A stretch of 21,667 bases of DNA from Vermamoeba vermiformis (taxonomy: Eukaryota). The notes under the pieces were generated by a model. The model saw only the letters and a list, made by a program, of their open reading frames with translations. It was not told the DNA's origin and ran no database searches. The stretch is taken from contig JBEWZL010000265.1 in assembly GCA_045837725.1 (NCBI GenBank), forward strand, positions 62,001-83,667. Direction: 5' to 3'. The first letter of the stretch is position 1. Each line of letters opens with the position of its first letter. This document shows, piece after piece, positions 2,049-21,667 of the stretch. Position numbers and translations under genes: made by a program.

Positions 2049-2349
2049 AAGCTGAATCTCAGTTTACATGCCAATAAATTGGAAAAATAAACAGTTTGTA
2101 TTTTTTAGAATATTTTGCATTAGTGCCAATGGCACAAATAACCTTTGATTTTTATTTCTGGGTTGAAAACAGATGAATAAATTTGATACAACAGGCATGT
2201 ATTCTAATGTTAGCAAAATATATTAACAATCTTAGTGAGCCAGTTCCAAACAGCTTTGGATGGGATGAAGGAAATGGTGAAAAAGATCAAAGATTGCAGA
2301 AGGAGAGTAAATTCTGCTTTAAAATACAACAAACTCACAAGGGCCCCTA

Positions 2350-2975
2350 TTAGGTATTTATGAAGTAGTCATCACTGGAACTGGAGACTTTATCCACATT
2401 TTCATCAAACTCTAGGTCCAACACTCCAGAAACAAAGTAACTTAGCTCCTTATGCCTTGAGGTAAGCCAACATTGTTCAATGAAGAATTTTCAGTGTGAT
2501 CCAAATAGGATGGAGTGATCAGTTGTGTTTAATGCATTGATTAGATGCACAAAATTATTCTGATTCTCTTAAGAATGTGGCAAAAGTGCATGCAAGTACA
2601 CCAAGTTACTGTGGTCACTTATTACCTTCAAGTTTTTGATGACTGAGTCAGTTGGATGTTTACATGGCACTTCCATAGGATGCTTTAATTTCAAATTTTA
2701 TCCAAATTTGGCAATAAACTGAACTCTGCAACACTGACAGCCAATGTCCTTGTGATTGGTGGGTATTAATTGTATCAGGCCATGTTCCATGAGCCTTCAT
2801 TTGGGCTTTCAATTGATTGCCCAAAGCTGGATGAGCCACCTATAATTTGGATGAGCTGAATGCTCTGCAGGTATTACATGGGTGCTTTGAGTCAGTACGA
2901 GTCCAATAGCCGTGCTAAACAAACTTTCTTCAGTGACAAATACTTGCAGTGCAGCTCATTAACCAAATGTACCAG
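2350..2975 (-). pseudogene. Decayed paralog of the F-box-like gene at 4037-4984
   Basis: The minus strand reads YLSLKKVC...YLQSIQLI, then after a frameshift near 2848 YRWLIQLWAIN*KPK*RLMEHGL...WLTSRHKELSYF. These blocks are collinear with VLNLRLAC...FLVSLMTL, YRGILKAWSVQRYRPNRNLFELAM and WLAASYRRNKELLYI of the neighbour. Five internal stops lie in the main frame. Confidence 0.6.
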
Positions 2976-3007
2976 TTAAGTGTTGTTTAGTTGAGTAATG
3001 ACACCAT

Positions 3008-3090
3008 TATGGTAGCCTTCTGGGTAATAAAAACCCACAGGTTATGGAGTTTATAGAGCCTTTAAACACTGTTTTTGTCAAACTTTTGCC
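3008..3090 (+). repeat. Diverged copy of the terminus-like sequence at 7251-7333
   Basis: Ungapped hand alignment to 7251-7333 gives 62/83 identities (TATGGTAGCCTTCTGGGTAATA... vs TATAGTAGGCTTCTGGGTTATA...). Confidence 0.8.
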
Positions 3091-3361
3091 AAATCTGCAC
3101 ACAAATGTAAGCATTTGTTAGGCTTATATTACATTTTGTTGCCCTTGACATGATTTTACTGCTCTACTGCCTGCCAAGCTCTTCTTTTCTACCTCTTTCT
3201 TACTGCATACCTCCTAAACCCATGTGATATAGATGTCAAGATGTGGTCGCCAAACAACTAAAGAAATTTGTTAGCACTTTAACTGACAGTGGAAGTAGGA
3301 AGTTAGCAGATTAATTGTAAGCCTAGGCTTGAAATATTGAAATATACTCAAATTGATGGTC

Positions 3362-3573
3362 TTACAAGTTGCAGCTCTCTGCTAATGAGTGGTGAGAAGT
3401 TGGTGTGACTGGGACTGGATCTGATCCAACTTTCAAGTGGTTAGTATTGAAGGGTCAATTTTAAATACTCCTACAAGTTATTGCTCTCTGGCAAGCAGTG
3501 AAGAAAAGTTGTTGTGAGTGACACTGGATCTGATCCATTTTCCAAGTGGTCAGTATTGAGGGTGTATTTTCAA
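3362..3573. repeat. Diverged tandem duplication, period about 110 bp
   Basis: The blocks TACAAGTT..GCTCTCTG..AAGTTG.TGTGA.TG..ACTGGATCTGATCCA..TT.CAAGTGGT.AGTATTGA occur twice in the same order. Confidence 0.85.
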
Positions 3574-3641
3574 GCTATAAATATCAAAACTATTCTACTG
3601 AAAAGGCTAGGGCTGGGATGGTAGTACCCTAAAACTTTTGA

Positions 3642-3750
3642 AGAATTCTAGGCCTTTCGTCCGAAGATCGGACGATCCCAGACCAATTTCCGAGAATTCT
3701 TGACCATTCGTCTGAAGATCAGACGATCCCTGACCATTTTCAAGAATTCT
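3642..3750. repeat. 50-51 bp tandem repeat (2 units plus a third palindrome) with perfect 8-bp hairpins
   Basis: The palindrome AGAATTCT lies at 3642, 3693 and 3743. Hairpins are TCGTCCGA-AGA-TCGGACGA (3657-3675) and TCGTCTGA-AGA-TCAGACGA (3708-3726). Confidence 0.9.
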
Positions 3751-3792
3751 CAATCATTGTTTGACAACTCCAATGAAAGTGGCAATACACCT

Positions 3793-5207
3793 CAATTTAT
3801 GTAAAAACAGGTTGAATTTGCAGTGTTCAACGAGTTATTTACTTTGAATTCAATCATGACTGTCTTCCATCTCAATTCATGACAGCTGACATAGCTTATT
3901 GTAAATTTCATGTAAAACAGGTTGAATTCGGTGTATTCAACCAGATTTTCGTATTAACTAGTATGTACTAACAAAATGATAAATTTAAACTTGGTTCGAG
4001 TACGTAGACTAACTTATCTAGTTTATTATAAATTGATCAATCAAAATCAATTGCAGGGTACTTTTCATGGTGTTGATAATCGGTGCCTTCCTCTCCCGTA
4101 AAGAAGGATTCCGCGTCGTGAGGCTCTTCTAGTATTTCCAAGTCGAAATCATCAAAATAACGCTTGAGTACCTTCATTTCCAAGGAATTTCCGAAACTAC
4201 GGGCAATGTAGAGAAGTTCCTTATTGCGTCGATACGAGGCAGCCAACCACAAGTGATCTCCGTCTTCCGCGGTGCTGATGTCAGGGACTTGCCAGTAGAA
4301 GCTCTGGTACACCAAGCATACTCTGTTTATGAACCGGTTGAGAAAGCCAGCAGCAAGACCAAGGCCAAAGCCGTACCTGGGAAGCCCAAGATTGAACGCT
4401 TTGAGTGCAAATTGAATTCCGTTCATACTTCGAGCTACCATCGCAAGTTCGAACAAGTTGCGATTCGGGCGATAACGCTGCACACTCCATGCCTTGAGAA
4501 TTCCTCGGTACGTGCAGCCAAGCGTCATGAGCGACACTAAAAAGTGCCCTGCGAGAATTGGAGACAAGTAAAAGGATTGACAGGCCAATCGTAGATTGAG
4601 AACCGACCTGGCAAACTCTGGGTCGTACTCTACGTAGCCACTATATAGGTCAGATCGTCGACGTCGACGTCGACGAGCTCTAGTTATTGCGACTTGGTAG
4701 GCAGCCCGGATTGCATCGGAGCCAACGTAGCTCCATTCGTCATAATAAATTTGTTCTATTACGAACAAAAGCTGTAAATAATAAATTTGTCAGTAAACTA
4801 ATTAATAAAAATAATTTGTTTGTGAAAAATTTATAGACGAATTATTAATTTTTATTTAGCTTCAAAGTGGTGTAAAAATTAGTTAATAAATATCCTTAAT
4901 TAAAATACTTACGGCATCCTGACTCGGGTATAAATCTGGGTCGTCGCCGTTTAAATCGATGATTATATCTTCGTTGTGCTCCATCCTACGATTAAATATC
5001 TTAATAGAGCTACTATATGTTAAGAAAAGGTACTTACGCTTCAATTGTTGTTATTATTGTTCGTTTTTAAAATGTAATCAACGATTTTTAAAACAATTTT
5101 GTTCGTCAGATTCTCCGCTTTTGATTGATTAAAAAAAAAGCTGGTATAAAGCCCCAATTTATGTAAAAACAGGTTGAATTTGATTCATTCAACAAGATTT
5201 TCGCATT
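3793..5207 (+). repeat. Three direct copies of a 40-50 bp hairpin motif (3793-3831, 3904-3954, 5155-5207) bracketing the minus-strand gene
   Basis: Shared AATTT(C)ATGTAAAA(A)CAGGTTGAATT-N7-TTCAAC, with GTTGAA/TTCAAC forming a stem. Copies 2 and 3 continue with AGATTTTCGYATT. Confidence 0.85.
4037..4984 (-). CDS. Hypothetical protein, about 268 aa, with a possible degenerate or split F-box-like N-terminus
   Basis: Exon 4984-4913 (MEHNEDIIIDLNGDDPDLYPSQDA) joins exon 4771-4037 across a GT-AG intron at 4912-4772 in phase 0. A further 5' UTR intron is likely at 5037-4986. YPSQDALLFVI and VLNLRLACQSFY resemble the two ends of an F-box motif. The gene model is more secure than the domain call. Confidence 0.75.
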
Positions 5208-5267
5208 TATATGAGAAATATCAAAAAACATCGGGGTTAGGGTTGTGAAAGCTGTTTTTGAAAGACG

Positions 5268-6918
5268 ATCCTTCTTTGGCTCAAGAAGGGAATTCAATAA
5301 GAAAGACAGGGAGTGATGAAAATCCCTTCCCCTAGTAGGCAATCCCTCTCTGAGACAGGAAGGGATTTTGAAAGAACAAAGGGAAAAATGAAGGAAATTG
5401 AGGCGAAAATTCCAAAATTGAGGGAAAATCAGGCAAAAACTGGGCAAAATCAGAGATTGCAGGGGTTTCGGCAAGGCAAAAGCAAAGAAAAAATGAGAAA
5501 AAATGTTGCTGGGGGGTGTGGGGGGGTTTCCCCCCCAATGTCTCCAATCATGGAAAATGTTCTGGAGACTTGAACTTGGACAACTTGTATCAGGAAACGA
5601 AGCGCAGATCAAAACATCATGTGCTATCAAAGGAAAAAAATGTTGCTGGGGGGTGTGGGGGGGTTTCCCCCCCAATTCCTCCAAGACAAACTGCTAGGCA
5701 GTAAGGGATTTTAAACTCGAGAAGCAACATTAAAATTTTCGGAAAACTTTCCCTCTCTGAGCCAGGGAGGGAAAAAATATCCTCCCTAAATAAAAAGGGA
5801 GGAAATTCAATAGTAGTGTTTGGAAACAAAAAAATTTCATTTTACTCACCCTCACAAACACAACACCACACTTGACAAACACAAGGCAGCCCACCTGCTA
5901 CTCAAGAAAAGGAAAATCTGCAAAGATGTCGTAAGTACAGTATTTGCAGACAGGGAAGGGAATAGCAAATTTCTAAGTTTTATTCGAAATTAAGAATCCC
6001 TTCCTGAATCAGAGAGGGAAAATCCCTTCCTGAGTCAGAAAGGGAAAAGATTAAAGTTACAGTGAGATAATCCTTTCCTGACCCAAGAAGAGATTCTAAC
6101 TCGAGTTTACAGGCAATCTACCCAAGCTACCCAGATCTTGAACTTGTTAAAGCAAGGAGAGACGAGAAAGGAAGAAGGAAAGCAGCGAAAAGAAGAAAGA
6201 GCGGCCAAGAAGTTACAAAAGGAGTTGGAAAAGCTGATGGGAGAGCCCAAGCCCAATGCCAAGAGCAAGTGGTCCGACAGGTAAGAGAGCAAGGTGAACT
6301 CTAGCGAAAAACTGACAAACGTCCCAGGAGCCACGTGAGCGGGATGCCCTCCGGAAGCTGGTGGATCGAGGCCGACCAAGAGAGAAAGTGCCTTCTGTAC
6401 AAGGGGCCTATCATGGGCAAGAACCAGAAGCTCGTCCAGGAGATTGACCGAGGTGACCACCAATGGGTGGTAGTCCACTTGGTCAAGGGCGGAAGCCAAT
6501 GCTGGCTGGCCCTGGCAAAGGCTCCGGAGCTGGAAGAAAGAGCCTGCCTGGAGATCAAGTCCCACTGGAACCCCGACAAGGTGAACGCCCAGTTGCAGAC
6601 CTGGAACCTGTCTCGCAACAAAAAAGGAGACTTTACCTTCCAGAAAGTCATGGAGGACTGGAAGGTGGAGTACAAGTTGGCGGTGAAGGCAGGAGCAAGG
6701 GAGCCCTCCAACACCAACGAGCTGACCGAAGAGGCTGCCAGGGCCGAGATCGAAGAGAGCCTGGTTCCCAAGGCGATTCGAGTGCGGTCGGAAAAGACCA
6801 AAGAGGAAGAGCCGTTCGGAGATCCCGACGCGTTCCCGGTCGTCGGCAAGACCAAGGTGCTGGAGATGACTCCTCAAAAGGTAAGAGTAAAAATCTATTC
6901 TTGAGCCAAGAAAGGATT
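5268..6918. repeat. Dispersed imperfect palindrome family A (about 27 bp), consensus approximately AATCCCTTCCTGAGNCAGRAAGGGATT
   Basis: Copies at about 5268-5293, 5341-5367, 5748-5774, 5995-6019, 6021-6045, 6069-6095 and 6892-6918. All lie upstream of the 5926-7243 gene or in its introns. Confidence 0.8.
5498..5676. repeat. Two identical 42-bp G/C-rich hairpin elements (5498-5539, 5635-5676)
   Basis: AAAAAATGTTGCTGGGGGGTGTGGGGGGGTTTCCCCCCCAAT occurs twice. TG7-TTT-C7A forms a perfect 8-bp stem. Confidence 0.95.
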
Positions 6919-7243
6919 AACTCTGACCGTCCAACAGGTGGTTGCCACCAAAGAGGTGTCCGAGTCGGCCAGGAAGAGGATCAGGGACGAATTAGCCACC
7001 AGCAAGGCACTGGCCCAGAGCAAGGCAGAAGCGAGCGACAAAAAGAACAGGAGAGCCAGCGTGGTCAGCAAGGCGGTGGAAGAGGCCAGCAAGAGCAAGG
7101 ACATGCCCAAGGACACCAAAAGCTTGTTGGAAGGGATCAAGGAGAACCCATCAATGCTCAAGACCCTCCAACAAGAAGCCTCCAAGATCACCAAGGCCAA
7201 GTGCGTGGGAACTATAGTAGGCTTCTGGGTTATAGAAATTTAA
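5926..7243 (+). CDS. GC-rich, K/E-rich hypothetical protein, 4 exons, about 343 aa as it stands, probably 3'-truncated
   Basis: Exons 5926-5930, 6113-6280, 6328-6880 and 6938-7243 join in frame via GTAAG...CAG introns with CTAAC/CTGAC branch points. Codons strongly favour G/C at third positions, unlike the neighbours. The last residues (IVGFWVIEI*) are read from the 38-bp repeat. Confidence 0.8.
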
Positions 7244-7288
7244 GGGTTATTATAGTAGGCTTCTGGGTTATAGAAATTTAAGGGTTAT
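7213..7288 (+). repeat. Perfect 38-bp tandem duplication, candidate element terminus
   Basis: TATAGTAGGCTTCTGGGTTATAGAAATTTAAGGGTTAT at 7213-7250 and 7251-7288, exactly at an abrupt switch from GC-rich to AT-rich sequence. Confidence 0.95.
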
Positions 7289-7608
7289 AGAGTTTAAAGT
7301 CCAGTTAAACCTCTTTTTTGTTAAACTTTTGACTGTTTTTGCCTTTTTGCTGTCATTTTTTCGTTGAAAAGTGTGCCAAAATAAAAAGACTAAAAGCCAA
7401 GTTCAACTTTAATTTACTTAGAATAAGTGTATGCAAAACAATAAATAAAACAAGAACAGCAAGAGTTTGTTTGAATTTTTTTTTATTTTTACAAAAAACA
7501 GTTACAACTGGTGTTTTTAATTGGCAGGGAAGTGTAAGCAAAGCTCTGCGGACCAAAGATAGGCTGTAGACCTAAGTAAGTTAATTAAGGTTAAGTTTAA
7601 CATTGCCT

Positions 7609-8312
7609 GGTGCAGTGTGGAACTTCCCCTTTGAAAAACTAAAGTTGAACAAGGAGCAGATCCACAAGGAGCCAGGGGTACAGACACATGGAATCCTGCA
7701 AGGAGTGGTTCGTGTGGTGCTGGTCCTAAATACAATCAAAGTCTAAGAGGGGAGGTGCAGCATGGAGCCAACCCTAAAAAAAAATGAAGTTCAAACAAAG
7801 GGCGGTTCCTCAAGGAACCAGGGGGCCAGAAAAACTAAGTCCAGCAACCCCTGGTACCGTAAGGAACCGTCCTTTGGAAAAAATTAAAGTCCAAAGAGGG
7901 GCCGGTGCCAAAAGGAACCGACCCTCGAAAATATCTAAGTCCAAACAAGGGCCGGTACGGCAAGGAACCGACCCTTGAAAAAAATAAAGTCCAAGAGGGG
8001 GCAGTTCCTCAAGGAACCGGGGTCAAAAAAAACTAAGTCCTGCAAACCCCGATTCCATGAGGAACCGACCCCTGAAAAAAACTAAGTCCTACAGGGGTCG
8101 GTTCCTCAAGGAACCGGGGGTGAAAAAAAACTAAGTCCTGCAAACCCCGGTTCCATGAGGAACCGACCCTTGGAAAGAAACAAAGTCCAAACTAGGGTCG
8201 GTTCCACAAGGAACCAGGGGTGAGGAAACAAAGCCCAATTGAGGCTAGTTCCCCGCAGGAACATAGTGCTGGGGCAGGCTAAGTCTTGAAAGGGCTGGTT
8301 CCACTTGGAACA
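7609..8312. repeat. Array of 47-51 bp units, each with a 16-bp GGTTCC-N4-GGAACC palindrome and an A-tract-AAGTCC linker
   Basis: Palindrome starts at 7804, 7853, 7904, 7954, 8003, 8051, 8100, 8149, 8200, 8247 (5-nt core) and 8297. Degenerate units lie at about 7609, 7658, 7707 and 7754. Confidence 0.95.
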
Positions 8313-8775
8313 GCTCATCCAGGATTAGCACATCGAGGTGCCAGTTCAGAAAAAAAGGCTGTATAATGAATTTGGCCCATAAAACAATTAATTGGGCACG
8401 TGCCTAGTGGCACAAGTGAAAAAATCAAGTAAAAGAAATAAATTTGAGCTAATCTGGAATAAAAAATTTTGACATCCAAAAATTAGCCTTGGTGTCGTAA
8501 AAATTTGAAACCAATCATGTAATTAATGAGACAACAGTGGCATACTATTTCAGGTATAGCCACTGCTCAAGAAATTAAAAAGTGACTTACCTGGCAACCG
8601 TGGCTCAGATGGGCAAACAGTCTCACGCAGGAGTGCACAGACACGCAGAGTGTATTACCACACAGGAGTGCACCAAGCACTCGACCATAGGCAACACACT
8701 GTGCTTGTCTGTGCATGAGAGTGGTGGTGTTGTGGCTGCGAGAATAGATAAACAAAAAAAAAATCTTTTGCGAAA

Positions 8776-9140
8776 TTTTTTTGTTGTGGTTCAAAGAGTG
8801 AACAAAAACTTTTTGGACCAATCACATCACAGGAAGAGTTAGTCTAGGGCTCCAGGACCCTAGCATGCAGTAGCATCGCTAGAGGCAACGCAAGGCACTA
8901 CACTGTCGATCTACTAGTGCAAAGACCACCATGCAGCAAGATCTTGGCGGGAAAGTTAAGTTTTGGAAAGAAGGTCCGAGACTTAGGCATCCTATTAAGT
9001 AGAAGCTCTGCAACTCTCCACCCGGTCCCTGCAGTTGTTAGTTAAAAGGCAACCAAATGAATGCACAAGGAAGCCCGTGTGTAATTATTTTTTTTTTGTT
9101 GTGAAGCAAAGTTGTGAAACAAAAAGTTTTTGGACCAATC
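8776..9140 (+). repeat. Two diverged direct copies of about 50 bp (8776-8823, 9088-9140)
   Basis: T-tract-GTTGTG...CAAAG..GTGAA(A)CAAAAA.TTTTTGGACCAATC is present in both. Confidence 0.75.
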
Positions 9141-9401
9141 CCAGAGAGCCTGCTGTGAATCTCACAGGGTGGAATTGTGCAGGAATAGGAACACTCACAA
9201 GTTAGGCCATTGCTGGTAAGCACTGGGTATTAAGGGAAGTATAGCTATGAAAGTTGACACATTCCAGTGTTCTTCGAAAACCGATCCGATATTTTTTCAC
9301 AACCAATGACTAAATCTGCCTAATAGAAAGCATCAGTATAGTTAAACTCACGAGCACCAACAAATTAGAGTCACTAGGTAATAAACAAAGCCAACAGCAA
9401 C

Positions 9402-9890
9402 GAGAAATTTCATTCGAATAAAATTTATAAAATTCTTCTGCAGTAGATTTTTCTTGCGCTTACTTTGAGATTTAATGCTGCTCAAATGGGTTGCCAATAC
9501 CTCATATCAAGCTGTCTGCAATATATGGGCAAAGAGAAGGTCAACAGGCACCCAACTAGCAAGGTGAGCACAGATCTGAATCCGATCCAAAGTCAATTTT
9601 TTTTTTGCTTTGCTTACTCTCCCTGATGGCAGAAATAATAGGAATTGACGCGGAGCTCTCTATATTAAAGCATAAGTAGCTGGGCCAGTAGAAAGGAGAA
9701 ATTTCAGGTTAATAAACTTAATAAAAATCTTCCACAGTAGAATTTTATTATTTTTAGCGTTGTGAGATTTCATGTGGCTTAAATTGTGATGTGTGCTTCA
9801 TATTGAGCTATCTGCAGTATCATTCAATAGAACAGGTCAACAGGCACGAGATGAGCAACATGAGTCCCCGATCTGAACTCGCATCCAAAG
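9402..9890 (+). repeat. Diverged direct duplication of about 190 bp (9402-9592, 9696-9890)
   Basis: Collinear blocks GAGAAATTTC, CAGTAGA, TGAGATTT, TCATAT..AGCT.TCTGCA, AGGTCAACAGGCAC, GATCTGAA and ATCCAAAG. Confidence 0.85.
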
Positions 9891-10473
9891 GTATTCTGGA
9901 TGCAGGTTGCACAATGGCCCTGCTGACTGCAATGTGCAAAATTAGTGAAAAGGTTTGAGCGTGAAAACCCACACAACTGAGTCAATATAAGGGAGGTATA
10001 ACTGTTGCAGAAGGTTGACAAAATCTCCCCAGAATAATTTTTTCTCTCTAGGGAGATTTCACAACCAAACAAAATCTTTTTTCCAACGGTTCTATTTCAT
10101 TTCAATATTTTGCTGTTATCATGAGTAACACAAATATACGTGTTATGTCAGCAGACCTTGCAGCTGCTGTGCAAAGTCAACAGAGATCTTACGTGGAGAT
10201 CTCAGATCAGTATTGGAAACAGAATGTTCTGGTAAGAATTGCTCAAATAATTAATTTAACTACGTAATAATTTTAATAATAATATTTTAACCTTTACAAG
10301 GTTATTTTGGAGGGTAAAATTGCAATTTAATTTTTTTGTGTCAGATTTGACTTTTTTATTTTCACAGCTCCTCCTAATTCAATATATTTTAATTAAACAA
10401 TATTCCCTATATATTTTTACATATAAATTAATAGCTTTTTAAATAGTCACACCAACTCTCTACTGAGTGGAAA

Positions 10474-13400
10474 ATGGTCACGTGTGCCGAACTCAAGGCA
10501 AATCCCAAGATCTTCAACAAGGCAAATTGCTGTGTCCCAGACTGCAAAGAGAAGGCACAGTACTCGTAAGTAACTCCAATCTATTGTTTTCAAGCCTAAC
10601 TAATCCCTTGTAGCATCCCCACGTCAATAATTGATGATGGCGCAGCAGTGTGCAAAAATCACCTCAGACGCTTCACCATCACGCAAAGCTGCCACCCACT
10701 AAATAAGAAGGAGTCAGTTATTGTTGGTAGAGCGTAAGTATTGTCAGTTTAAATATCTTATTGACTCTAATTTCCTTTCATGTTAGGTTCAACATCCGCA
10801 CTCTAAACCGTGTTGGTCTCAATCGAGTGATCAACAAAATAGAGAAGCATGGTTGGGATTCGAACCAAGGATCCCTCCATGGTGTCATTGTGACAAATGG
10901 CAAGATAAAAAAGGTTGCCATCTTCGCAGGTAAGTAAAAGTAGTTGTTTTTTTGCTTTACTTAGGTTATTAATGGTTTATTGTAGGTCAGCATCGATTTG
11001 AAGCTCTAATTTACTTGTGCGATCTGCACAAGAAGAACTTGGAGCATCAAATCCTTCTTTATGCTTTTGACTCCGAGGTGGAGATGCGAGCTGAAGGACA
11101 CAGCATCCAGTCTAAAGAACAGACTGTGCGTAAGATGTCCTACCTGGAAAAGATCCTCCAGGTGCAGCATTTGGCTCATGAGGCTTATGGGGATACCCAA
11201 GATAATTGGTTTGCAGGCAATCGAACCAAAAACTATTGGGATGCTATTGCTGGTCGCAAACTTCATGGTAAGTTGATTTTTGCTTTAATTAGATCTTTTT
11301 TAACCATTTGTTAAAAGATGTTGAATGGCAGCTGCGGTCGTTGGATTATAATGTACTCAAAGAGCTTTCAACTTACCATGCCAACCATGAGGCAAGGAAA
11401 AAGTTCTTCCAAGTGTAAGTAATACCCAATATTAAACCTCTAAAACTAAAAATAACATGTTCTTTTAGCCCTTTTCTGAAAACTGACCTGCAGTGCTTGG
11501 CAAAATTGCCAAGGAAAGATCAGAAGATTTTCATGGAGCGACAGCAAGCACAGTGGCAGGAGGTTCACCACAAACGTAAGCAACTAGTGTGAGTCATTTC
11601 ACCATTCTAAATCTTTTTTTTAGGTGCTGATGTTAATTCAGCCCAAAATGTTGGCATTATGGCTGAATTGTTTGTTGATCATGCGGTGAAGGCCTTTGAC
11701 AAGCTTCGCAAGCATTACAATGCGCTGGTGAGTTCCTTTTCAATTTTAAATTATTAAAAAAAAAACTGAATGATTCACCCATAGGAGGCACAAGGCAAAG
11801 ACCTTGCTGCATTTAAAAGGAAACTGTGCCAAATTCGAGTTGACCAACAGTTAAGTTGGTCTGCATGGGAAAAGAAGATGGACAACTTCACTTTTTCTGA
11901 ACTTGAGCTGCAGCAACTGGCTGCAGAAAATCCTGCAGTTCCTGTGGCTGGTCAGCAGGAACAACAAGTTGCTGCTCCACCTCTGCAACAAGCAGTTGCT
12001 GAGCAACAGCAAGGAGGAGCAGTGCAGCCTCAGCAGCAGTTAGCTTCTGCTGCACAAGTCCAACAGCCGGTGGAAAATCAGGTGACTCGCCAGGAGCAAC
12101 AGCCATCAGTCCAGGAGCAACAGCAGGTTGTTGCTGATCAACAAGTAACAAATCAGCAGCTGCAAGTGGATGCCCAGACTCCGCAAAAACAAGTCCCAAC
12201 TCTTCCTCCTGCCAACAATAACACTCCTCCAGGGACCCCGATAGATGTTGATGATGAGGAGGAAGCTGAAGCTGGAGAGACCAGCTCAACTCCAAAAAAG
12301 AGAGTGAAAAAAAGAAAGTACGATGGTGGAACTCCTGGTCGTGCCAGAAGAACACCTAAAAAAAATGTTGGTAGTTCCAACACAGAAGACAACAGCCAAG
12401 AGCCTGATGATGGTCAACCAGGCCGTTTCAACACAGCAGGCACCCCGATCCAGAAAAAAGCAGATGTGCAGAAGCAAGATGAAGATGACGAATCAGCTTC
12501 TGTGGACTTGTTTGAAGAGGATGCCAAGCCTGCCCTTAAAATTTTCACTGTCAAAGGAAAAACCCTGCCAATAGCAGCGTTGAAAGATGCAAAGCTTGAT
12601 GTGCTGCTTCTATCCTTGGTGGACAAGGCATGGCGAAGTGATTTTATTGCCTCTTTGGGGCAATACTTGCTTCTTAGTAAGTTATTAATGACCATATATA
12701 CATATTGGCTAATTTCTTTTCAAAGTTGAAGCAAGACTTGGCACCCAATTGCTTTTGCCATTCAAAAGCATTCTCGTCAGCACTAGTGAATCGAGAGCGT
12801 ACTACTTGGCTGGCAATTTTGAATTTACTGAGCCAAGTTTCAAAGGCTTGCATGAGAAAGTCTCGCTGATTATTGAGGTAAGGATAGAAACCTGCTTGTG
12901 CAGATCCAAAACCAGATCTGAATCATTTTTTTTTTGTTTTTTTTATTTGTTTGCCTTATAATACAGCTCTTTATATTTATATTGCCAGCAATAGAGGCTA
13001 AATAACAATCAAATGCGATTGAAATTTCCTTTTAATAAAATTTATAAAAATCTTCTGCAGTAGATTTTATCATCTTTAATGTTCGTAGATTTACAGCGTG
13101 CTAATTCTAGCTTGTACAGGAGTATCCTCCACTCAAAACCAAACGCTTGGCAGCAGTGTTTTACTGCATTCAAAGATTCATTGCCTCACGTAAGTTTTGA
13201 ACAAACTTTTGTTCCTCTGCTTCTAATCTCACCTCATTCTACAGCAAATGACATGATTGTTGGTCTCCTTGAACTCGATGACATGGCCTTCTACGGGGAA
13301 GGTTCCCAGATCATCATGTACTATGGTGAGCAAGTTGCTGCCGAGGGAGGAGAAAAAGATTTCAAAGCATATTCTCAACCCCAACAGGAGGCTTTGGCTG

Positions 13401-14933
13401 ACGTGCATTGCCTGTGCACCACACTAGTCAACGCAGTTGGGGAGAAAGCTGTTGTAACGTGGGAAGAGGTAAGCATAATTAACTTAATCAATTTGAAAAA
13501 AACCAATTAATTATTTTTTTCAGGCTTTAAATCAGCAGCACACCAGTGTTGTGAAGCCAGAGGTCTTTCCTCGTTTATTGTACGAGAGTTACAAGCCTTC
13601 AAGTGCAGTTACCTTTGTGAACACGGGCAATGAAAGCATTTTGTTCACAAAGGAAGTGCCAGCAGGTGAAGAACCCAGGATTGGCTGTGTCTCTCGTAAG
13701 TACTTAGTTTACTAATTATTATCTTTATTTTTACTATTATTAACACCCTTTGCTAATTAGAGGGTGAAGTGCTGCCTGAGATGCTAATCAAGCGCTGCCA
13801 AGCAATCTTTTTTGGTTCTCCATTGAGTCATGGTGTTCTTCCACAGCAAATGGCTTCCAACACAAGTGCATTGGCTGGTTGTGTCAATGAATTCACGTGG
13901 CTCAACTTCCATGCCTTTTCAGCAGTTTTGATGGTGCCACACAAAGCTCCACTTGTTTTGTTTCATGCAGGAACAGCAAATGGGCGGCTCATTTTTGCTG
14001 AATCTAAGTCATTAAACCCTTGGTGTAAGTTTTAAACATATTTTATGTGGAGCCTGTTTCTTAATTACCAAAAAATTCAGCCCAGGAAGCCAAGGATGAT
14101 CCAGCAAACAACTTCAACATAGTTATTGCTAAGCCTGGTGAAGTGCTTCACATCCCTGCTACTGCTAACCCATTTTGGCTTGCTTACTACCCTGACACTG
14201 ATGTAAGCAATTTAGTTAACATTGTTTTGTCTCTACTAACAGGAGTAATGTTTACAGGAGGGAATCAACCAAAATGCCACTGTCCTTGGGTATAGTTATT
14301 ACCCTTGGACATCATTTTTCAAGCGATTCACAGCATCTCCAGTTGTGGATCTTGGATCGTGGTTATTTTGGTTGCAAGTGCAGGACCATGCACTTCCTGC
14401 AAATGCTGAGACTGTCGGGTTTGGCCACTGTTTAGCAGAGTGGTTGGCATATCTTTCCACTGCTCCTGAAACAAAGTTTGCTGCTTCTTCCCTTGCATAC
14501 GTCCATTGCAGCAAGTGCTATGTTCCTCTTATCCATCTCTTGTTCAGAAAAGATCAGGAATCTCGCTGCTTGGAATGCTCTGCAGAGTGGGGCTTTGAGG
14601 GTGTGGAGGTGTGCTGCTCTTCAAAGCAGACTGTCCATCTTGATTTTTGGATTAAAATTGTCGAGTAAGTTTTAGCTGCAATGTTTTCAAGTATTAACCA
14701 TTTTTGCAAGGAAATTACTCTCACTATTGGCTGCACATGGTCTTACTAATGAAGAATTGGTCAAAGCCTGCAAGTCGGCAGCACGAGCAGAAAATTTCAT
14801 CTTTTCCCCTCCAAAACTGGCACCTCCTAGTATTGCTCCTCTCACGCGCCTTCTTAAACCCAAGACAAAGCCAGTGCATCCACCACCAAAGGCTGATGAA
14901 GAGCCTGCAGCAAAGAAGGCAAAAGAGAACTAA
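10474..14933 (+). CDS. Multidomain protein, about 1156 aa: C-x4-C...C-x2-H Zn-finger-like motif, ParB/Srx-like domain, Q-rich/acidic linker with basic NLS-like patch, degenerate JmjC/cupin-like domain, CxxC...CxxC KDM6-type Zn module
   Basis: 16 exons join without stops, all through GT-AG introns: 10474-10565, 10614-10733, 10787-10929, 10986-11267, 11318-11414, 11469-11575, 11624-11727, 11785-12676, 12726-12877, 13120-13189, 13245-13468, 13524-13695, 13761-14024, 14081-14202, 14258-14664, 14711-14933. Motifs: NIRTLNRVGLNRVINKIEKHGW, IFAGQHRFEAL, MSYLEKI, LAKLPRKDQ; KPGEVLHIPA; HCSKCYVPLIHLLF...RCLECS. The gene structure is more certain than the domain names. Confidence 0.85.
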
Positions 14934-15220
14934 AGCCCAAGGGAGACTCTGCTTCAATCATTTTTTTTGGCACTTTTGTTGTTTTTGTTTTGTTTTACAT
15001 AAATAGTAGTTTTTCAGCTATATTGACTCTGATTTGGCCTATTCTCATTTAATTTTGTCTGTTTTTAGTCCACAAAGGGACTTTTGACACTCAAAACCTA
15101 ATAATTTGACACCCAAAAATAAACCCGCCAAAAATATAATGGGTTTTTAGAATCCAATCCTGTTTGTATCTCTATATTGATATTATCACACACAAAGCAT
15201 TATTCAACACTCACGCAACA

Positions 15221-17179
15221 ATGTCCTCCAGTTCCAGCGAAGAAATAAGCTTCTCCGAGCAGATGGCATCTTCAACAAGTTCAGATGTGGATGACTCATT
15301 TGACCAAGTAAGCAAATTATATGATAATATATTTACCACAACGATTGTGCCTATTTTACAGTTATATTACTGTAAAGAGACCATTAAAGTTGTATATTTA
15401 TTTTCCATCTTGGGTTTTTACCTGGATGTCACGTCAAAAAATTCCCCTTTGGTGTCAAATTATTCTCTTTATAATTTATATACAAAATTAAGGAGCAAAA
15501 AAGCTCAAATTAAAAAAAGACTTGCTGAAGATGATATTCAAAAACCTTCAGATGTTACATCCCTCGTTAAAGCAGCGAAAATGAGTGCAAATTCGCTCGT
15601 TCGCTACTCTTCATTATTTATGTTGTGCAAAGATAAAAATTGTCAAATTGCAAATGTTTTAGTCGAGCAATTTAAGTTGCAGAAGGACTTTGTTGATAAA
15701 CATGCTGAAATCATTGCGGAAATGAAAAAATTCTTTGTTGAGTGCAAATCTGCACTTAGTAATGAGCAAAAGACATCCCGCAAAAGGTCTCGTGATTCTT
15801 CTGAACCCTCTGATGATGAGCCTCCATAAAAGACAGACGAAATTGCTCAGCGAAAGGCGAATCTGGATGCGATGGCAGCTGCAAGATCTAAACGTCCAGT
15901 TACCATTGAGTTAAGTCAGGAGTCAGTTCAGGAGGATGATGATGATGCCCTTGAAGATGATGGCCTGCATCTCGACTTTGGCATTGATAATAGTGGAAGA
16001 CAAACTTCAACTATTGTTCATGATAACGCGACCGAGCCATTGCAACACCTCGAAGAGATTATTAAGCAAAGCCAGAAATTATCTACCCTGGAAGCCTTTC
16101 AGAGCCAAGGTGAGGAGGCAACTGTTGCACAGAGAGCCTCCAAGGTTGCTATTGACATTCTTCGAAGCTTCTCTAAATTTGGCATATACCTTCGAATTCA
16201 GAAGAGATCTGCCAAATATTCGCTGCTTGGAATCGGTAATATGTATTCTGAGTCTTACCTTAACCTTTTACCGCATGAGAACATTGATATTATGGTTGCT
16301 TGTGGAAAAAAGCCTCCAGCCTCTTCTGTTGTGAAGAAGATTGTTAACAAGGAGGAAGAAGAAGCAGATAGTATCCTATCTGCAGCAACAAACAACCTTC
16401 TCAATGCAGAGCAAGTAAAACAGCTGAAATCAGCTGTGTTTGCCAAGTCGCTTTATGCTCAAGTAATGAAAGGCAAGGATAAACTGACCATTAATGCAGA
16501 GAAAGCTGAAACTCTGGCATTTTCTCCTGATCTTCTCCATAATCTATTCAAATCCACGGATAAGAACAAGTTCTTGAAAGATGAGCTGTCCACAGAAGTG
16601 AAAATCAATGAATTTCTTGCAGGTGTTCTTGAAAAATCACATGGTGCTTGCAAGGTTGAGCATGAAATTCTTGCAGCAAAGAAACTAAGACTCTTTGCAA
16701 TCGGTTGGATCATTCATGAGAAGGCAAAAGACTTCCACACTCAATTGACTGCAAAGCTTACCAGCAAGAAAACAATTGAAAATGAAGCAAAGGCGGTGGA
16801 AAACCGTCAAAATGCAGAAGAGATCAACAATGAAGTTGCTAAGGAGATTAAACCTGCAGTAAATGCTGCACTTTTGGATTTCTTCAAAACCACCGTCAAT
16901 GATCTCAAGTATAAACGTGTCTTCAGTGGTCATGACTCTGAAATTCTTGCTGCAATATCAAAAGTAACACAAGGAAAGGATGTATTCAGGCACTGGAAGA
17001 ACCAGCTAACTAGATTTTACGCTGTCTGTGAGAAAAGACCTATTTTGCTGTTCTCTTCACTGTCCTATTCATTCTTAGCACGTTACTTTGTGCAACCCCA
17101 TCAAGTTGAGGATGTTTTTAAGCATTTAGAACAGATTAACTTTAGTCCTAGCTTTTGGACGCATCCAGAAAATTGTTAA
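15221..17179 (+). pseudogene. Long helical/charged protein-coding region interrupted by one in-frame TAA (15827-15829); probably the 5' half of the downstream gene
   Basis: ORFs 15164-15829 and 15872-17179 share a frame, and the gap reads through as DDEPP*KTDEIAQRKANLDAMAAARSKR. The likely start is ATG 15221. A GTAAGC donor at 15308 makes the 5' structure uncertain. Confidence 0.6.
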
Positions 17180-17235
17180 TGTGCAAGTAACGCAAAATTT
17201 TTAATATCTCTGTTTGCTTATTATTTTTTTAATAG

Positions 17236-20200
17236 GATGAGCCATTTGAAAGCTTGGTGGAACGCATTGCACGCCTTCGCATTGAAAGAGAGGTCAGCGA
17301 CAAAAATCTACTACAGTAGATTTTATTAATTTTATTCTTGGGAGATTTCCTTAGTCTCAATTACTTACCTCTGCATTGTAGCAAGCTGCTAGTGGTACCA
17401 ATCAAGACGAAAGTTCAACAAGCACGATATTTAGTGAGGTAGGCAGTAATTGGAAAAAGTTTTTTTTGCAAAGTAGTTTTTTCTTGTTTTTTTTTATCTT
17501 TGTAGTAGCTGCAACAAGAAATATTAACGGAAAGCTATCCAGGTAGACACACAGCCAACTGAGCCAGAGACAAAGGTGAAATTTCCTTCGATAAAATTAA
17601 TAAAATCTTCTGTGGTAGAATTTTATCAACTTTATTAAGTTTCAGTTACTTATCCTTGCTTTGTAGGTGGCTAGTTTTGATAGCAATCCAGAGGACAGCT
17701 CTGCGAGCACCATATTTAGTGACAGCAGCAATATTTCCACTGATTTTTTTGTTGATGATGTTTCGATCCGATCTGCAAGCACCATCTTCTCCGATGAAAG
17801 TAATGATGATCCTAAAGGCTCCTCTTGCAGTCAAAGCCAATCCTCAATATGCTACCCATTCATAGCACCGGCAGGACGCAGAGTAAGCAAGGAATCTGAT
17901 GCTGAGGAGAGATCTGCTGGCAGTGACCAAAACAAAGCATTTAGCAAGCAGGCTGCCCTTCCGGCTTTGGAAACAGAGAAGGATAATCCTGTGCATGATG
18001 TTCCTATGTTTTTAGACTGGGCAAACAAGGCATTCCACTCAAAAGATGCGTTGATGGATGCGTTGGTGCCTTTCATTCTGTAAGTGTTAAACTACATGTC
18101 AAGCCAAGTAAATAACAGCACCTTCAAGGGTACGAAATGATGATGGAGGCTATGCTAGTGATGATGAGGTTGCACGTGTAGAGATGCTTAATGAGTTTAT
18201 TCCTCCAACAACTTGGCCTCCTTCAGTCTACACTTTGGAACATCACCATATGGCAACGTCTCTGGAGGTACTAAATAGTTTTTAAGCTTTTTTGACTTAA
18301 TTCATGTTTTAGGCTGCCGATGCATTGGATTACCAAAATGACATTAGAACTTGGATCAGTGATGATGGCAGTTTCTTTGGCTTACCATGCATCAAAACTC
18401 CAGTCACTTTTTACAGCCAACTTGATGCTGATGCAACAGTTCTGTATTCTTCAAAGCTTTCCTTCGTCAAAGAAAAAATGTCAGTGTGCCTTTATCCAAA
18501 GCCAAAGTTAAGGATGCCCAGTTCCAAAGTAACTGTGAAGCAAGGCCTATTGTCCTCAAAATTAAATTTCAAGCTTGGGTATGTTAATGCTTGCATGGTT
18601 GAATTAATAATAACAATTTTCTGTTTGGTAGGGAGGTTAAAAACAGGTTTATTATATGGGTGTGCTTTCCTGCATTGAGCCATGAAGATTATGATCAGGA
18701 TTTCCTCCGCTCTTTTTGGCATGAAGTTATATGGCAGTGTAAGTGCCTACAACCAGCTAGAGTATAGAATAATGTTTTAACACAGCAATTAATTCGGTCA
18801 AACTGGCTGTTCCAACGACAGCACCAAAAGTAACTGCAGATAAAGTTGACATTGCTTTTGCTGCTGGTGTGCCCGGCTTCTCTACTGCAATTAATGCAGC
18901 AGTTTATCCAGCTATTGACGCAGCTGTTAAAAATTTCAAGTGGAAAGCAAAAAAGTGAGTTCTAGCTTGCAAAAATATTTCCCTTTTGCTAAATTATTGG
19001 TAACAGAGTTGAAGTTCTTTTTGTCACGCAGATTTATGGTGATAAAGAAACTCTTCATAGCAAAAAAGATGCCACTGCATTCTTAAGTGATCTATCTGAT
19101 TCCTTTGAGATAGATCGAGTAAAGCTATCTGAGTTGCATTACCTGCAAGACTTGGCATTTGATATTTTGTAAGCACCATGTTTGTAAGATAGACAAAAAG
19201 CTAATATGTTCTTTTAGCCCTGATCCTGAGCTGGAAAATGACAGTTGCTTAAACATTTCATGGAATCCTTTGTTTCTCGAAAGCTTGAAGAAGATCTCTA
19301 CATCCCCTCTCTGTTGGTTGTACAACAAAAAGAATCCAGGTCAACATAACACTAGCTTCTCGAACTTGGGATCTCCATTATTGCAGAGCTTGGATGTTAA
19401 ACACAAGTCAAAAGAATCACCAATTTCAGAAATCAAAGCCTACGCAAGAAGCAGCCAAGAATTCAGGTACAACATGCCCATGAGTCAAAGTTCGTACGCT
19501 ACTCTGCTATTTCCCTTTGAAAGAGTAAATGCCTCATGCCCAGAGAACACTGAATTTCCATCACACTTGCGTCAGAAGTTGAAATGTCAATCTGAACAAC
19601 TGTTCGCTCGAGAAGAAAAAGACATAGCCAATTTATATCTCAGCAACATAGCTTCCAAGAACTATGGTTGCCGTCTTGAAGTGACGTTGGCAGATCCATC
19701 ACAGGAGAGAATTGAGGACGTCTATGATTTCCTTCAATCAACAGCAAAGGAATTTATTAATGTGCACAACTGGCTCTTGGAATTGATGGCAGAAAAGCAA
19801 ATCCCAGAGTGGTGCATTCAATTTAGTCCGTTGCAAGTCATCCCATCAAAAATCGTTGTCCTTCCAGCAAAAATCCAGTATACTGCCATTGACTCCTTCT
19901 TATTCTCCATCTATTCTTCAGTATTCATGCCAGATGGTAAGTTAATATTTTTTTTTAGGCAGTAGCCTAAGTGCTGACTGATTTAAAGGAACAAGAAATG
20001 CTCTTGCTTGTGTAGATTTCTTCTCAGAGGGCTTACAACGACTTGCAATAATTCTGGAGGACTGCTTGCGATTTCTTTGGTGTGGATTTGTTTCCCTTTT
20101 GAAGCACCCTGCTTTATTTTCTGAAATGAACATGGCGCAAGCTTTGAATGAATATGGTCACTTCTACATTGCCCCTGAAATGATAACGATTGCAGATCCT

Positions 20201-21301
20201 GTCCAGTACAGTGTTCTAAAGTCACCTTACCCTCAACGAGACTTTATTGATATGCTAAATGACCCTCAAGACGGTGATGATGCAATTGGTGCCATTGATC
20301 CAAGCCCTGTCATTGGAGCTAGATGCTTCCCTCTGCCTAGAAAGTACCTGCGACTACTTCTACCTGATAAGATGTGGGATGCACTACCAACTGTGCTTCA
20401 AAGAATGACCATTGTTATTGCCAATCCCCAAAATATTTCAAACATATCAATGCCTGAATCTGAATTGCAAACTATCGCTGCCAACCTGCTCAATTTGCTA
20501 TGGAAAGATATTTCGTCAATTATTGGTGCAGAAAATAACGCATGGCTCAGTGTTGCTGCCAGCAAAGAAACAATGCCTTGTTTCCCTGGGTCCAAAGTGC
20601 AACACATCGTGGATTACAGCAGCATCACCCCAATGAAGTTCATTAATTTGATTTGCAGTTACTCTGGACCACAAAGTTTCAATTCTCACAGCCTTCACTA
20701 TTTGAAAGCATGGAAATCAATACGTGAAGAAGTCATTCCCGAGATGAACAAACAAGCAAAATTAGTTTGCCCTCAGGCAGATAGCCGTATTCCTTATCTT
20801 AGTGAGCAGCTCATCATGATACAATTAGCAAAACAAATAACAAAGCTTGATTTGAGGATTTTGCCTTACCCTGGCATCAACCATTTTTGGACGCATCGCA
20901 TGAACGATAGCTCAACGTTAGTTTGGTGTTATTGTTACAATGATGCCACAACTAAACTTGAAACGCTGACAGATGATCAAACAATCAGCCTTTTTGGAGA
21001 TCAGCCAATATTTGACTTCACGTTTTACCGCGCTTTGGTGCACACGGTTGTCTACAATAACCCTCACTTCAGCAAGTTTTCAGCAAAAAAAGAGTTGGCC
21101 CTGCACTGTTTGTTTCACTTGATATCACACCCAGGAAGCAAGGCCAAGAAACCAAGGTACTCACAAGGAAGTTTACGTGACAAAATTCTTGAAACTGGTT
21201 TGTTCGATGAAACCCGTTCAGCAAAGAAGCGTGGGGGGTTTATGCCAAAGTCAGACAGCGAATTATGGCAATTGTATCTCAAATTTGAAAATAAACATTA
21301 A
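17236..21301 (+). CDS. Large hypothetical protein (over 1100 aa of spliced open frame) with no obvious start codon of its own
   Basis: Exons 17667-18079, 18129-18267, 18313-18578, 18632-18738, 18786-18954, 19007-19168, 19218-19936 and 19989-21301 join without stops (1095 aa). Phase-0 exons 17236-17292 and 17382-17438 extend it upstream and share the STIFS repeat. The first in-frame ATG is only at about 18006. Confidence 0.85.
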
Positions 21302-21667
21302 AACTGTGGCTAACTTTGAAAAATAAACAACTCTGTTGTTGCTTTACTCTGCAGATTACCCAAGCATTTAAAGATTCCTATCAAAGACCTAGCATCACTT
21401 ACACGACTTTGTGAATGCAACAATGTGAAGGGCAATCATTGTAAAAAATAGTAAAAAGTTCAACTGTTGAGAATGTAAGGCAGTGTGCATGGCAGCGGTT
21501 CTGGATCTCAGCTTAAACATTTTAGAATCAGCTCATACTTGAACCATAGCATACTCATATGAATTGTTATTGATCCACACCATATTTGCAAAGATGGCAT
21601 ATTTACATGCTTTGACGCATCTGGCTAGCCTCTGGATCTCAGAGCCATGATATCATATTGATGAATC

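Follow-up and report, generated by a model that had tools for sequence, protein, structure and literature searches.

A tandem array of 16-bp palindromes upstream of an orphan gene with a candidate ParB/Srx-type domain

The array and its surroundings

The stretch of DNA considered in this study (the window, 21,667 bases) contains a tandem array of 16-bp palindromes lying between two genes that match no protein family. Repeated about 15 times, a unit of 49-50 bp makes up the array (7609..8312, with no strand assigned), which is degenerate at its edges. Upstream is a gene of the forward strand (5926..7243; four modelled exons) that encodes a Lys/Glu-rich protein of 344 amino acids. The array is intergenic, since it directly follows the 3' end of this gene, where AATAAA signals lie near 7380-7450. 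Downstream, also on the forward strand, is gene 1 (10121-14933; 16 modelled exons, 1,203 amino acids), whose ATG at 10121 lies 1,809 bp beyond the end of the array (8312), with no gene intervening. Gene 2 (15221..17179, forward strand) follows and likewise matched no family. It carries a single in-frame TAA (15827-15829) between two long open stretches of the same frame, and a 19-bit match to an NCBIfam methyltransferase, as compared to a cut-off of 65.

The array is genuine, as the preliminary description had claimed. Allowing up to two mismatches, the sequence GGTTCC-N4-GGAACC occurs 10 times in the window, always within 7804-8312, against an expectation of 0.48 from shuffled sequence, and none of 100 shuffles reached 10 sites. 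Four sites are exact (7804, 8100, 8149 and 8200). If three mismatches are allowed, degenerate units appear in register at 7609, 7658, 7754 and 8248, giving 14 recognisable palindromes over about 15 unit positions. Palindromes start 47-51 bp apart; in Tandem Repeats Finder the repeat period comes out as 49/50 and as 100, the latter over 7778-8215 (4.4 copies, 75% matches). By that program no other array of the window comes near it in size or regularity, a point against regarding it as an ordinary minisatellite; its restriction to a single place in the window suits such a view. No second, inverted array of the palindrome is present in the 21,667 bases, contrary to what would be expected of a foldback or MITE-type transposon.

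The period of 100 reflects a higher-order repeat of about 100 bp, comprising two oppositely flanked GC-rich cores of 26-28 bp, each centred on GGTTCC-N4-GGAACC. In the best-kept part (7778..8215, no strand assigned), adjacent cores are inverted repeats of 26-28 nt, 88-93% complementary and 17-25 nt apart, and so give stems of 26-28 bp with loops of 17-25 nt. The array folds more stably than its shuffles on both strands (z of -9.4 and -10.8, equalled by none of 200 shuffles). These figures, along with several microRNA-precursor models that match the hairpins below threshold, favour reading the array as a source of RNA. However, all 17 Rfam matches fall under the gathering score (the best, to a microRNA precursor, at 38.7 bits as against 90) and reflect hairpin shape alone, and the want of any Rfam family at gathering score is also in keeping with a minisatellite. 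Long-RNA depth does not exceed 0.08 over 7694-8359, which counts little against a transcript, since the same libraries cover no part of the window to any real degree.

Conservation within the unit bears on more than one reading. Of the 11 best units, nine carry an exact right arm (GGAACC), whose columns are kept in 10-11 of the 11, and just five an exact left arm (GGTTCC). The spacer motif AAGTCC and the A-run are likewise conserved, and the centres of typical units (TCAA, ATGA, ACAA) are not palindromic. Conservation of the whole unit, together with a left arm so seldom exact, gives the look of a young tandem repeat. Against this, no columns of the unit are better conserved than those of the palindrome, as would suit sites recognised by a protein, though the decay of the left arm in 6 of 11 units argues the other way.

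A resemblance to bacterial parS had also been proposed, on the ground that the unit at 8297 agrees with a palindrome of that kind at 14 of 16 positions. That figure stands when the unit is compared with an idealised palindrome; when it is scored against the parS consensus, there are three mismatches. The site at 8297 is the only one in the window within three mismatches of that consensus, counted once per strand, as compared to 0.93 matches expected, and 23 of 100 shuffles yield at least two. The likeness to parS is therefore at chance level, as the minisatellite reading would have it.

Other repeats occur nearby. A 26-nt direct repeat on the forward strand (8801-8826 and 9118-9143, 92% identity) contains GGACCAATC, which resembles a CCAAT box; its copies sit between the array and gene 1 and may have a promoter-proximal role. 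Upstream of the start codon there is also a diverged tandem duplication of about 294 bp (9390..9864, forward strand; spacing 294/296, 70-77% identity). Elsewhere in the window are a TCCCTyyCTGA...TCAGrrAGGGA family (five listed copies and inverted partners, 5268-6917), a GTTGAA-N9-TTCAAC family (3790, 3900 and 5152) and MITE-like inverted repeats (17299-17335 / 17591-17627). Since palindromic repeats are common in the window, the base rate for finding a cluster of inverted repeats near a gene is high here, and the fact that other families adjoin unrelated genes weakens any case for a specific pair.

The preliminary description spoke of an element, and a mobile one is not supported: I found no transposase, integrase or terminal inverted repeats enclosing the locus in the 21.7 kb, whose end falls inside the locus. 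Nor is there a ParA-type ATPase or P-loop in the window (Pfam on 17 ORF translations; PHROGs, NCBIfam). Word depth on the contig, which is not a copy number, is about 380-630 over the array and gene 1 and about 520-550 beside a synapsin-like gene. The two being of the same order is weak evidence against a multi-copy element.

Gene 1 and its ParB_N-like segment

The gene model, built from sequence and given no support by the RNA libraries, has GTAAG or GTGAG donors at 15 of 15 introns, which are mostly 46-59 nt long, with intron 1 at 215 nt. The peptides on which a ParB-like gene had been proposed are all found in the spliced product: FNIRTLNRVGLNRVINKIEKHGW is placed in exon 4, the G codon of ...VAIFA|GQHRFEAL is split across the junction of exons 4 and 5, MSYLEKI is in exon 5 and LAKLPRKDQ is in exon 7. 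Relatives amount to three exon-sized fragments, and exon 5 matches at 40-53% identity. On the reading preferred below, the product is a lineage-restricted, orphan protein. A Cys/His cluster in exons 2-3 (10447..10733, forward strand), with the pattern C-x14-CC-x3-C-x19-C-x2-H-x10-C-H, may be a zinc finger; a Pfam search over it returned no family. Exon 9 (11785..12676, forward strand) encodes a Gln-rich, low-complexity linker with acidic runs and an NLS-like KKRVKKRK, and the protein is probably nuclear.

The segment of interest comprises residues 112-199 (10717..11089, forward strand, interrupted by introns 3 and 4). A profile made from residues 101-330 and three relatives was compared to a locally built ParB_N profile of 38 sequences. 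Hhalign gave a score of 29.7 over 57 columns, pairing residues 113-175 with boxes I and II, with a P value of 2.1e-4 that is optimistic in that the hypothesis was picked after the motif had been noticed. The register is as expected, with NIR opposite the Arg of box I (npR) and GQHRFEA opposite the GxxRxxA of box II (GeRRwrA). Box II keeps its Gly, Arg and Ala in alignment, and has His where the RR pair has its first Arg. None of 400 column shuffles reached 29.7 (maximum 20.35), and among 60 unrelated real sequences the top score was 20.8, so that the observed score lies 9 units above all controls of both kinds. Alignments to ParB_N span 57-77 columns, reaching past the GxxR motif, and a broader ParB_N profile strengthened the signal. 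All this argues against a spurious likeness, and exons 3-5 of gene 1 probably encode a divergent N-terminal domain of the ParB/Srx type.

Other searches pull in the opposite direction. No ParB was found by Pfam, PDB, PHROGs or NCBIfam, with exons searched singly, and a profile confined to canonical chromosomal ParB gave no match. The IbrB/YbdM profile was not significant, nor were those of DndB (P of 0.07, seven sequences) and GmrSD_N (P of 0.1, 28 sequences), hhalign aligning only the GQHR motif with each of the latter two. The preliminary description also foresaw an LSxxExA helix and an HTH after the GxxR motif. While the ParB_N likeness stands, weak but above controls, this second part fared badly: residues 195-330, compared to an alignment of full-length ParB, gave no box III (ENxxR) or HTH (hhalign 14.8, P of 0.17), and 10 of 100 shuffles scored as high as the short, out-of-register match. 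In the C-terminal 563 residues, comparisons to 2OG-oxygenase-type profiles gave just short matches at the level of motifs, such as KPGEVLHIPAT (2OG-FeII_Oxy_3, 30 sequences, P of 0.086; JmjC_2, 15 sequences, P of 0.051).

Comparison with known systems

Genes of the ParB family typically adjoin their sites. Chromosomal parS sites are dispersed, unlike the 50-bp tandem repeats seen here. Sulfiredoxin, a small enzyme of one domain, has its catalytic Cys in a box of the G-x-H-R type, and the G-x-H-R box of gene 1 presumably resembles that motif. Gene 1 is like sulfiredoxin in being eukaryotic and, by profile likeness, in belonging to the ParB/Srx fold class; it differs in having Gln at the position of the Cys and in setting the domain within a protein of 1,203 amino acids. 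One source (PMC12704722) presents sulfiredoxin as the main form in which the fold is known in eukaryotes, where the domain is otherwise rarely reported. The chromosomal, CTP-dependent ParB/parS clamps outlined there share with the present locus the Arg of box I, the GxxR box and 16-bp palindromes, but the locus departs from them in its failure to match the canonical profile, in the lack of a box III or HTH in the residues searched and in the His of box II.

The architecture of the array is the same as that of sopC of the F plasmid, described (PMC3177203) as 12 repeats of 43 bp, each with a 16-bp inverted repeat. Here there are about 11-15 repeats of 49-50 bp with 16-bp inverted repeats, adjoining a gene with likeness to the ParB family. 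The sequences are unrelated, the array here lies upstream of the gene, and the setting is eukaryotic and intron-bearing. SopB also has a site-reading HTH and a ParA partner, SopA, neither of which I detected.

Genes homologous to ParB beside arrays of inverted repeats were first reported in 2025, in giant transposons of algae (bioRxiv 10.1101/2025.02.11.637652). The gene in question, PAG3, sits in multi-copy DDE transposons of red algae (giant Plavaka, EnSpm/CACTA) among accessory genes of unknown function, and joins an N-terminal ParB-homologous domain to a 2OG-dependent oxygenase; it is described as adjoining tandem inverted-repeat arrays, and its authors propose binding to its own locus. 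Compared by description and not by sequence, gene 1 is like PAG3 in its adjacent array, in neighbours of no known family and, by profile likeness, in its candidate N-terminal ParB-type domain. It is unlike PAG3 in showing no significant likeness to oxygenases and no transposase in the window, its locus is not evidently high-copy, on the weak evidence of depth, and its host is read as an animal. No biochemistry is reported to have followed for the algal ParB-homologous accessory genes. My literature search encountered no report of a ParB-type gene paired with an array in an animal. A further source (PMC12477816) describes, in Ectocarpus Sola1 and in transposons from green and red algae, an accessory protein with a ParB-like domain and a DNA methyltransferase, whose proposed binding target is its own encoding element. 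Gene 1 shares a candidate eukaryotic ParB-like domain with that protein, but no methyltransferase domain was detected here.

Readings of the array and gene 1

I lean, with somewhat less than even confidence, to the reading that a hairpin-forming minisatellite lies next to the gene of an orphan nuclear protein, the two being neighbours rather than a dedicated pair. The array would be a locus-specific minisatellite, capable of forming hairpins or cruciforms, within an intergenic region of 2.9 kb in a genome read as that of an aquatic animal. Its founding unit would be a dimer of about 100 bp made of two GC-rich cores of 26-28 bp, one with G-runs at its flanks, the other with C-runs, and because of this opposite flanking, neighbouring cores would be inverted repeats of each other, separated by A-rich spacers with CTAAGTCC. 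Expansion was probably by unequal exchange or replication slippage, since the decayed edges of the array fit such a history. At most, the array would then act upstream in a general structural or regulatory capacity, and the ParB-type domain of gene 1 would be a nucleotide-binding or protein module separate from it. The presence of other palindrome families in the window is in accord with this reading, as are the failure to find a ParB HTH or box III in gene 1 or anything like ParA in the window, and the distance of 1.8 kb from array to ATG, with other repeat modules intervening. It is less comfortable with a ParB_N likeness that holds in three controls and with the parallels to sopC and to the arrays beside PAG3.

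Those same parallels, with the ParB_N likeness, the aligned residues of boxes I and II and the uniqueness of the array in the window, speak for a possible but unlikely alternative: that the N-terminal region of gene 1, Cys/His cluster and ParB_N-like domain together, binds its own upstream palindromes as a dimer, in the manner of PAG3 or sopC. Nucleotide-dependent spreading or clamping might follow, in the service of autoregulation, marking of the locus or protection from silencing, and the locus would belong to a large mobile element ending beyond the window, or be what is left of such an element after domestication; three adjacent orphan genes without a family do look like the cargo of a giant element. 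It is doubtful, though conceivable, that gene 1 is a ParB-type protein with its own centromere-like array, its N-terminal module sitting on the roughly 15 palindromes and a nucleotide-gated ParB_N domain spreading over or marking the locus. I would extend only guarded credence to the analogy by which such a pair, in a eukaryotic locus read as animal, might be a possibly domesticated, single-copy counterpart of the algal giant-transposon modules and of SopB/sopC. Besides the failure to detect an HTH or a significant likeness to oxygenases in gene 1, or a transposase or terminal repeats in the 21.7 kb, what holds these proposals back is that gene and array are linked by adjacency alone.

Quite improbable is a role for the array as a cis element or RNA source independent of the gene 1 protein, whether as sites for a dimeric factor, for which no known motif was identified, or as small-RNA hairpins, for which the folding speaks. 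Least probable of all is that the ParB likeness is spurious, gene 1 a mere orphan and the array what survives, in decayed form, of an internal repeat in a foldback or MITE-type transposon, for although the MITE-like repeats, the silent family searches and the post hoc P values suit it, the alignment controls and the lack of a second, inverted array in the window do not.

ParB-fold proteins acting on tandem palindromes underlie the segregation of bacterial and plasmid DNA. If the link between gene and array is coincidental, what is left is a commonplace minisatellite and an orphan protein family whose ParB_N-like domain is very divergent. If the link is true and the locus is animal, a self-recognition module would extend to Metazoa, and a 16-bp site with a domain of about 330 residues would offer a compact system for nucleotide-dependent DNA clamping in eukaryotes.

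The palindrome array

The tandem array of 16-bp palindromes (GGTTCC-N4-GGAACC) occupies positions 7609-8312, as located by a palindrome pattern search and by Tandem Repeats Finder. It is intergenic, since the upstream four-exon gene stops at 7243 and is followed by AATAAA signals near 7380-7450. (The stop codon of that gene is overlapped by an exact 38-bp tandem duplication, 7213-7288, of which a further copy, 76% identical, is found at 3008-3045.) With up to two mismatches allowed, the pattern has 10 matches in the window, every one within 7804-8312, where 0.48 would be expected, and none of 100 shuffles gets to 10. Three mismatches admit extra degenerate units, still in register, at 7609, 7658, 7754 and 8248.

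Units are spaced 47-51 bp apart, and the periods given by Tandem Repeats Finder are 49/50 and, at a higher order, 100 (7778-8215, 4.4 copies, 75% matches). The longer period comes from the alternation of two core types, one flanked on both sides by G-runs, the other by C-runs. Adjacent cores are therefore inverted repeats of one another, 26-28 nt in length and 88-93% complementary. Of the 11 best units, nine keep an exact right arm, GGAACC, and only five an exact left arm, GGTTCC; the spacer (an A-run, AAGTCC) is likewise conserved.

The preliminary description had likened these units to bacterial parS sites, a resemblance that did not hold up. When the window was scored with a parS consensus, allowing up to three mismatches, the sole match was the unit at 8297, on the edge of the array; 0.93 matches are expected by chance, and two or more occur in 23 of 100 shuffles. 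The centres of typical units (TCAA, ATGA, ACAA) are not palindromic.

Gene 1 and its candidate ParB_N-type domain

Gene 1, the spliced ParB-like candidate, is modeled on the forward strand from an ATG at 10121 to an end at 14933, with 16 exons encoding 1,203 amino acids. All 15 introns have a GTAAG or GTGAG donor, and most are 46-59 nt long. (A looser splice model of the region was dropped, its exons being implausible.) The protein contains FNIRTLN...HGW, VAIFA/GQHRFEAL (the slash marks an exon junction), MSYLEKI and LAKLPRKDQ, that is, every peptide previously quoted, so the original observation of an array plus a gene with these peptides is confirmed, the palindromes being far more numerous than in shuffles. 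Other features of the protein are a Cys/His cluster encoded by exons 2-3, a Gln-rich linker and an NLS-like stretch, KKRVKKRK.

Against 1.84 billion representative proteins, a HMMER search with exon 5 yielded three exon-sized relatives (P0001-P0003, 40-53% identity), nothing beyond them and no ParB; VRKMSYLEK is the stretch best conserved across the three. Because exon 5 has these relatives, gene 1 is real in the sense of being conserved. A word-indexed search with exon 5 found no longer protein, and no locus encoding the relatives turned up in metagenome contigs (two scans) or viral contigs (one scan). Depth in three RNA-seq runs that bear the same species label is at most 0.1 across the exons for the ParB-like N terminus (bins 10358-11689), and likewise across the coding exons of a synapsin-like gene described below. 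Pile-ups elsewhere, some of them inside gene 1 (e.g., bin 12356-13021), coincide with A/T runs and have poly-T/poly-A loose ends. The RNA-seq therefore supports neither the splice model nor silence. In the run labeled X1, the sole contig covering the ParB-like N-terminal exons (9764-11840) differs from the window at 28 positions and by one gap, and the contigs listed over 12226-21401 are identical to it; there may be a divergent haplotype across the former part of the gene.

Introns 3 and 4 interrupt the presumed ParB_N-like domain; the standard searches were made with unspliced exon pieces. Pfam at E ≤ 10 gave no match above cut-off for eight such pieces, nor did PHROGs (14 pieces) or NCBIfam (11 pieces). 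PDB sequences matched to exon 4, exon 5 and an alignment included neither a ParB nor an Srx chain, the ESM Atlas offered no usable match to exon 5, and an AlphaFold2 model of exon 5 with its three relatives reached a pLDDT of 54.8, not enough to base a fold search on.

Local ParB_N alignments were then built from bacterial genes matching PF02195. The profile of canonical chromosomal ParB does not match gene 1. A mixed alignment of 39 sequences matches it over 77 columns that run the full length of the ParB_N domain in the expected register (hhalign 29.07, P 0.0014), and over 57 columns that place NIR opposite the box I Arg and GQHRFEA opposite box II (29.74, P 2.1e-4), both P values being flattering in that the hypothesis was picked after the motif was seen. 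The first score is attained by none of 300 column shuffles (maximum 27.2; reversed query 15.9) and the second by none of 400 (maximum 20.35). Gene 1 as a single sequence scores 29.2, the best of 60 unrelated real sequences 20.8. Ranked together with 255 six-frame ORFs from the window, the spliced protein comes first, yet with an E value of only 0.052.

On these comparisons, gene 1 probably carries a ParB_N-type domain, albeit a very divergent one. The interpretation offered in the preliminary description is thus supported in part: the likeness to ParB survives at the level of the N-terminal domain, though not as a match to canonical ParB, and the LSxxExA helix and HTH supposed to follow it do not, for residues 195-330 score 14.8 against ParB, a value equalled or beaten in 10 of 100 shuffles. 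Profiles of IbrB/YbdM (309 of 2000 shuffles) and of DndB and GmrSD_N likewise align at that GQHR motif, none of them significantly. The 120 YbdM homologues listed, all at least 74% identical, are too uniform for a useful profile. The P1 ParB record has no PF02195 match.

The C-terminal half of the protein is not significantly similar to the 2OG-FeII_Oxy_3 (P 0.086) or JmjC_2 (P 0.051) profiles. Exons 13-14 (13763-14202) read ...FHAGTANGRLIFAE...KPGEVLHIPATANPFW..., reminiscent of a cupin/JmjC-type strand pair, and a His-x-Asp/Glu triad is not evident in them.

Neighboring genes

A synapsin-like (ATP-grasp) gene with short introns, at about 640-2046 on the forward strand, marks the left boundary of a region of orphan genes; its exon 1329-1619 matches Pfam Synapsin_C at 26.4 bits (cut-off 22.5). 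On the strength of this gene the host is assigned to the animals. Downstream of gene 1, neither gene 2 (15221-17179, forward strand) nor the ORFs up to 21301 have a family match or relatives. Gene 2 has a single in-frame TAA (15827-15829) separating open stretches of the same frame at 15221-15826 and 15830-17179, for which a recent nonsense mutation, a polymorphism and read-through are candidate explanations; contigs of the DNA run break around it, between 15816 and 15872. The ORFs from 17180 onward yield no coherent gene model. One of them, of 439 codons (19982-21298), led to no longer protein and no usable ESM Atlas match, and its AlphaFold2 model has a pLDDT of 35.

Readings of the locus

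The reading I place first, at somewhat short of an even chance, is that of a locus-specific, hairpin-forming minisatellite that adjoins the gene of an orphan, probably nuclear protein without any dedicated link to it. The array folds far better than shuffles on both strands (z -9.4 and -10.8). Two further palindrome families lie beside other genes, so the adjacency of a palindrome cluster and a gene is weak evidence here. One, of about 23-26 bp (TCCCTyyCTGA-N3-TCAGrrAGGGA, within 5268-6917), has copies at 5341, 5748, 5995, 6021 and 6069 and inverted partners at 5268-5294 and 6891-6917, upstream of the gene at 5926-7243 and within its introns. Several of its arms have G-T pairs and no A-C pairs, a hint of a hairpin specific to one strand, at the RNA level. 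The other is a 50-nt repeat with GTTGAA-N9-TTCAAC, present in three copies (3790-3839, 3900-3949, 5152-5201) on either side of an orphan gene on the minus strand (4037 to about 4990). Elsewhere, a palindromic AT-rich motif, AAAATCTnCTnCAGTAGATTTT, occurs five times (9429-9475, 9723-9769, 13046-13092, 17302-17348, 17602-17634), and one inverted pair, at 17299-17335 and 17591-17627, with 37-nt arms 89% complementary and 255 nt apart, has a MITE-like look; two 50-nt copies at 5498-5547 and 5635-5684, 96% identical and 137 bp apart, hold a G-run/C-run palindrome, GGGGGGTGTGGGGGGGTTTCCCCCCC.

It is possible, though doubtful, that the gene 1 protein and the array form a self-recognition pair. In architecture the array resembles the centromere of the F plasmid, sopC. 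There a 43-bp direct repeat occurs 12 times, and SopB, a ParB-family protein, binds the 16-bp inverted repeat that every copy contains (PMC3177203). The closest published parallel, in the Bostrychia genome preprint (10.1101/2025.02.11.637652), is PAG3, accessory genes belonging to giant Plavaka transposons of red algae, whose protein the preprint's authors propose to bind and modify its own element. Two other reports describe an accessory protein of the Ectocarpus Sola1 transposon as ParB-like plus DNA-methyltransferase (PMC12477816), and sulfiredoxin as the commonest eukaryotic ParB-fold protein (a 2025 survey, PMC12704722).

That the array has no relation to the gene 1 protein and serves as a cis element or a small-RNA source is unlikely; hammerhead and every other Rfam family fall below the gathering score. 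No array was found among 2.9 million viral contigs, where the 21-nt core pattern has only six single matches.

It is very unlikely, given the hhalign controls, that the likeness to ParB is spurious and the repeat next to the gene derives from a transposon. The mobile element spoken of previously is not borne out within the window: its long ORFs include no transposase, integrase, polymerase or ParA family (Pfam on 17 ORFs, PHROGs, NCBIfam), and no terminal repeats enclose the locus. Contig word depth was taken from the best DNA run (possibly the window's own source) and should not be read as copy number. Across the array and gene 1 it is about 380-630, and beside the synapsin-like gene about 520-550, a hint, and only that, that array and gene 1 are not high-copy repeats. 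It rises to 2,300-8,300 over 3032-6361, 4-15 times the flanks, and that stretch is probably a multi-copy element.

A literature search found no report of such a protein-array pair in animals. The concept already has eukaryotic precedent; an example in an animal would be new, and directly testable.
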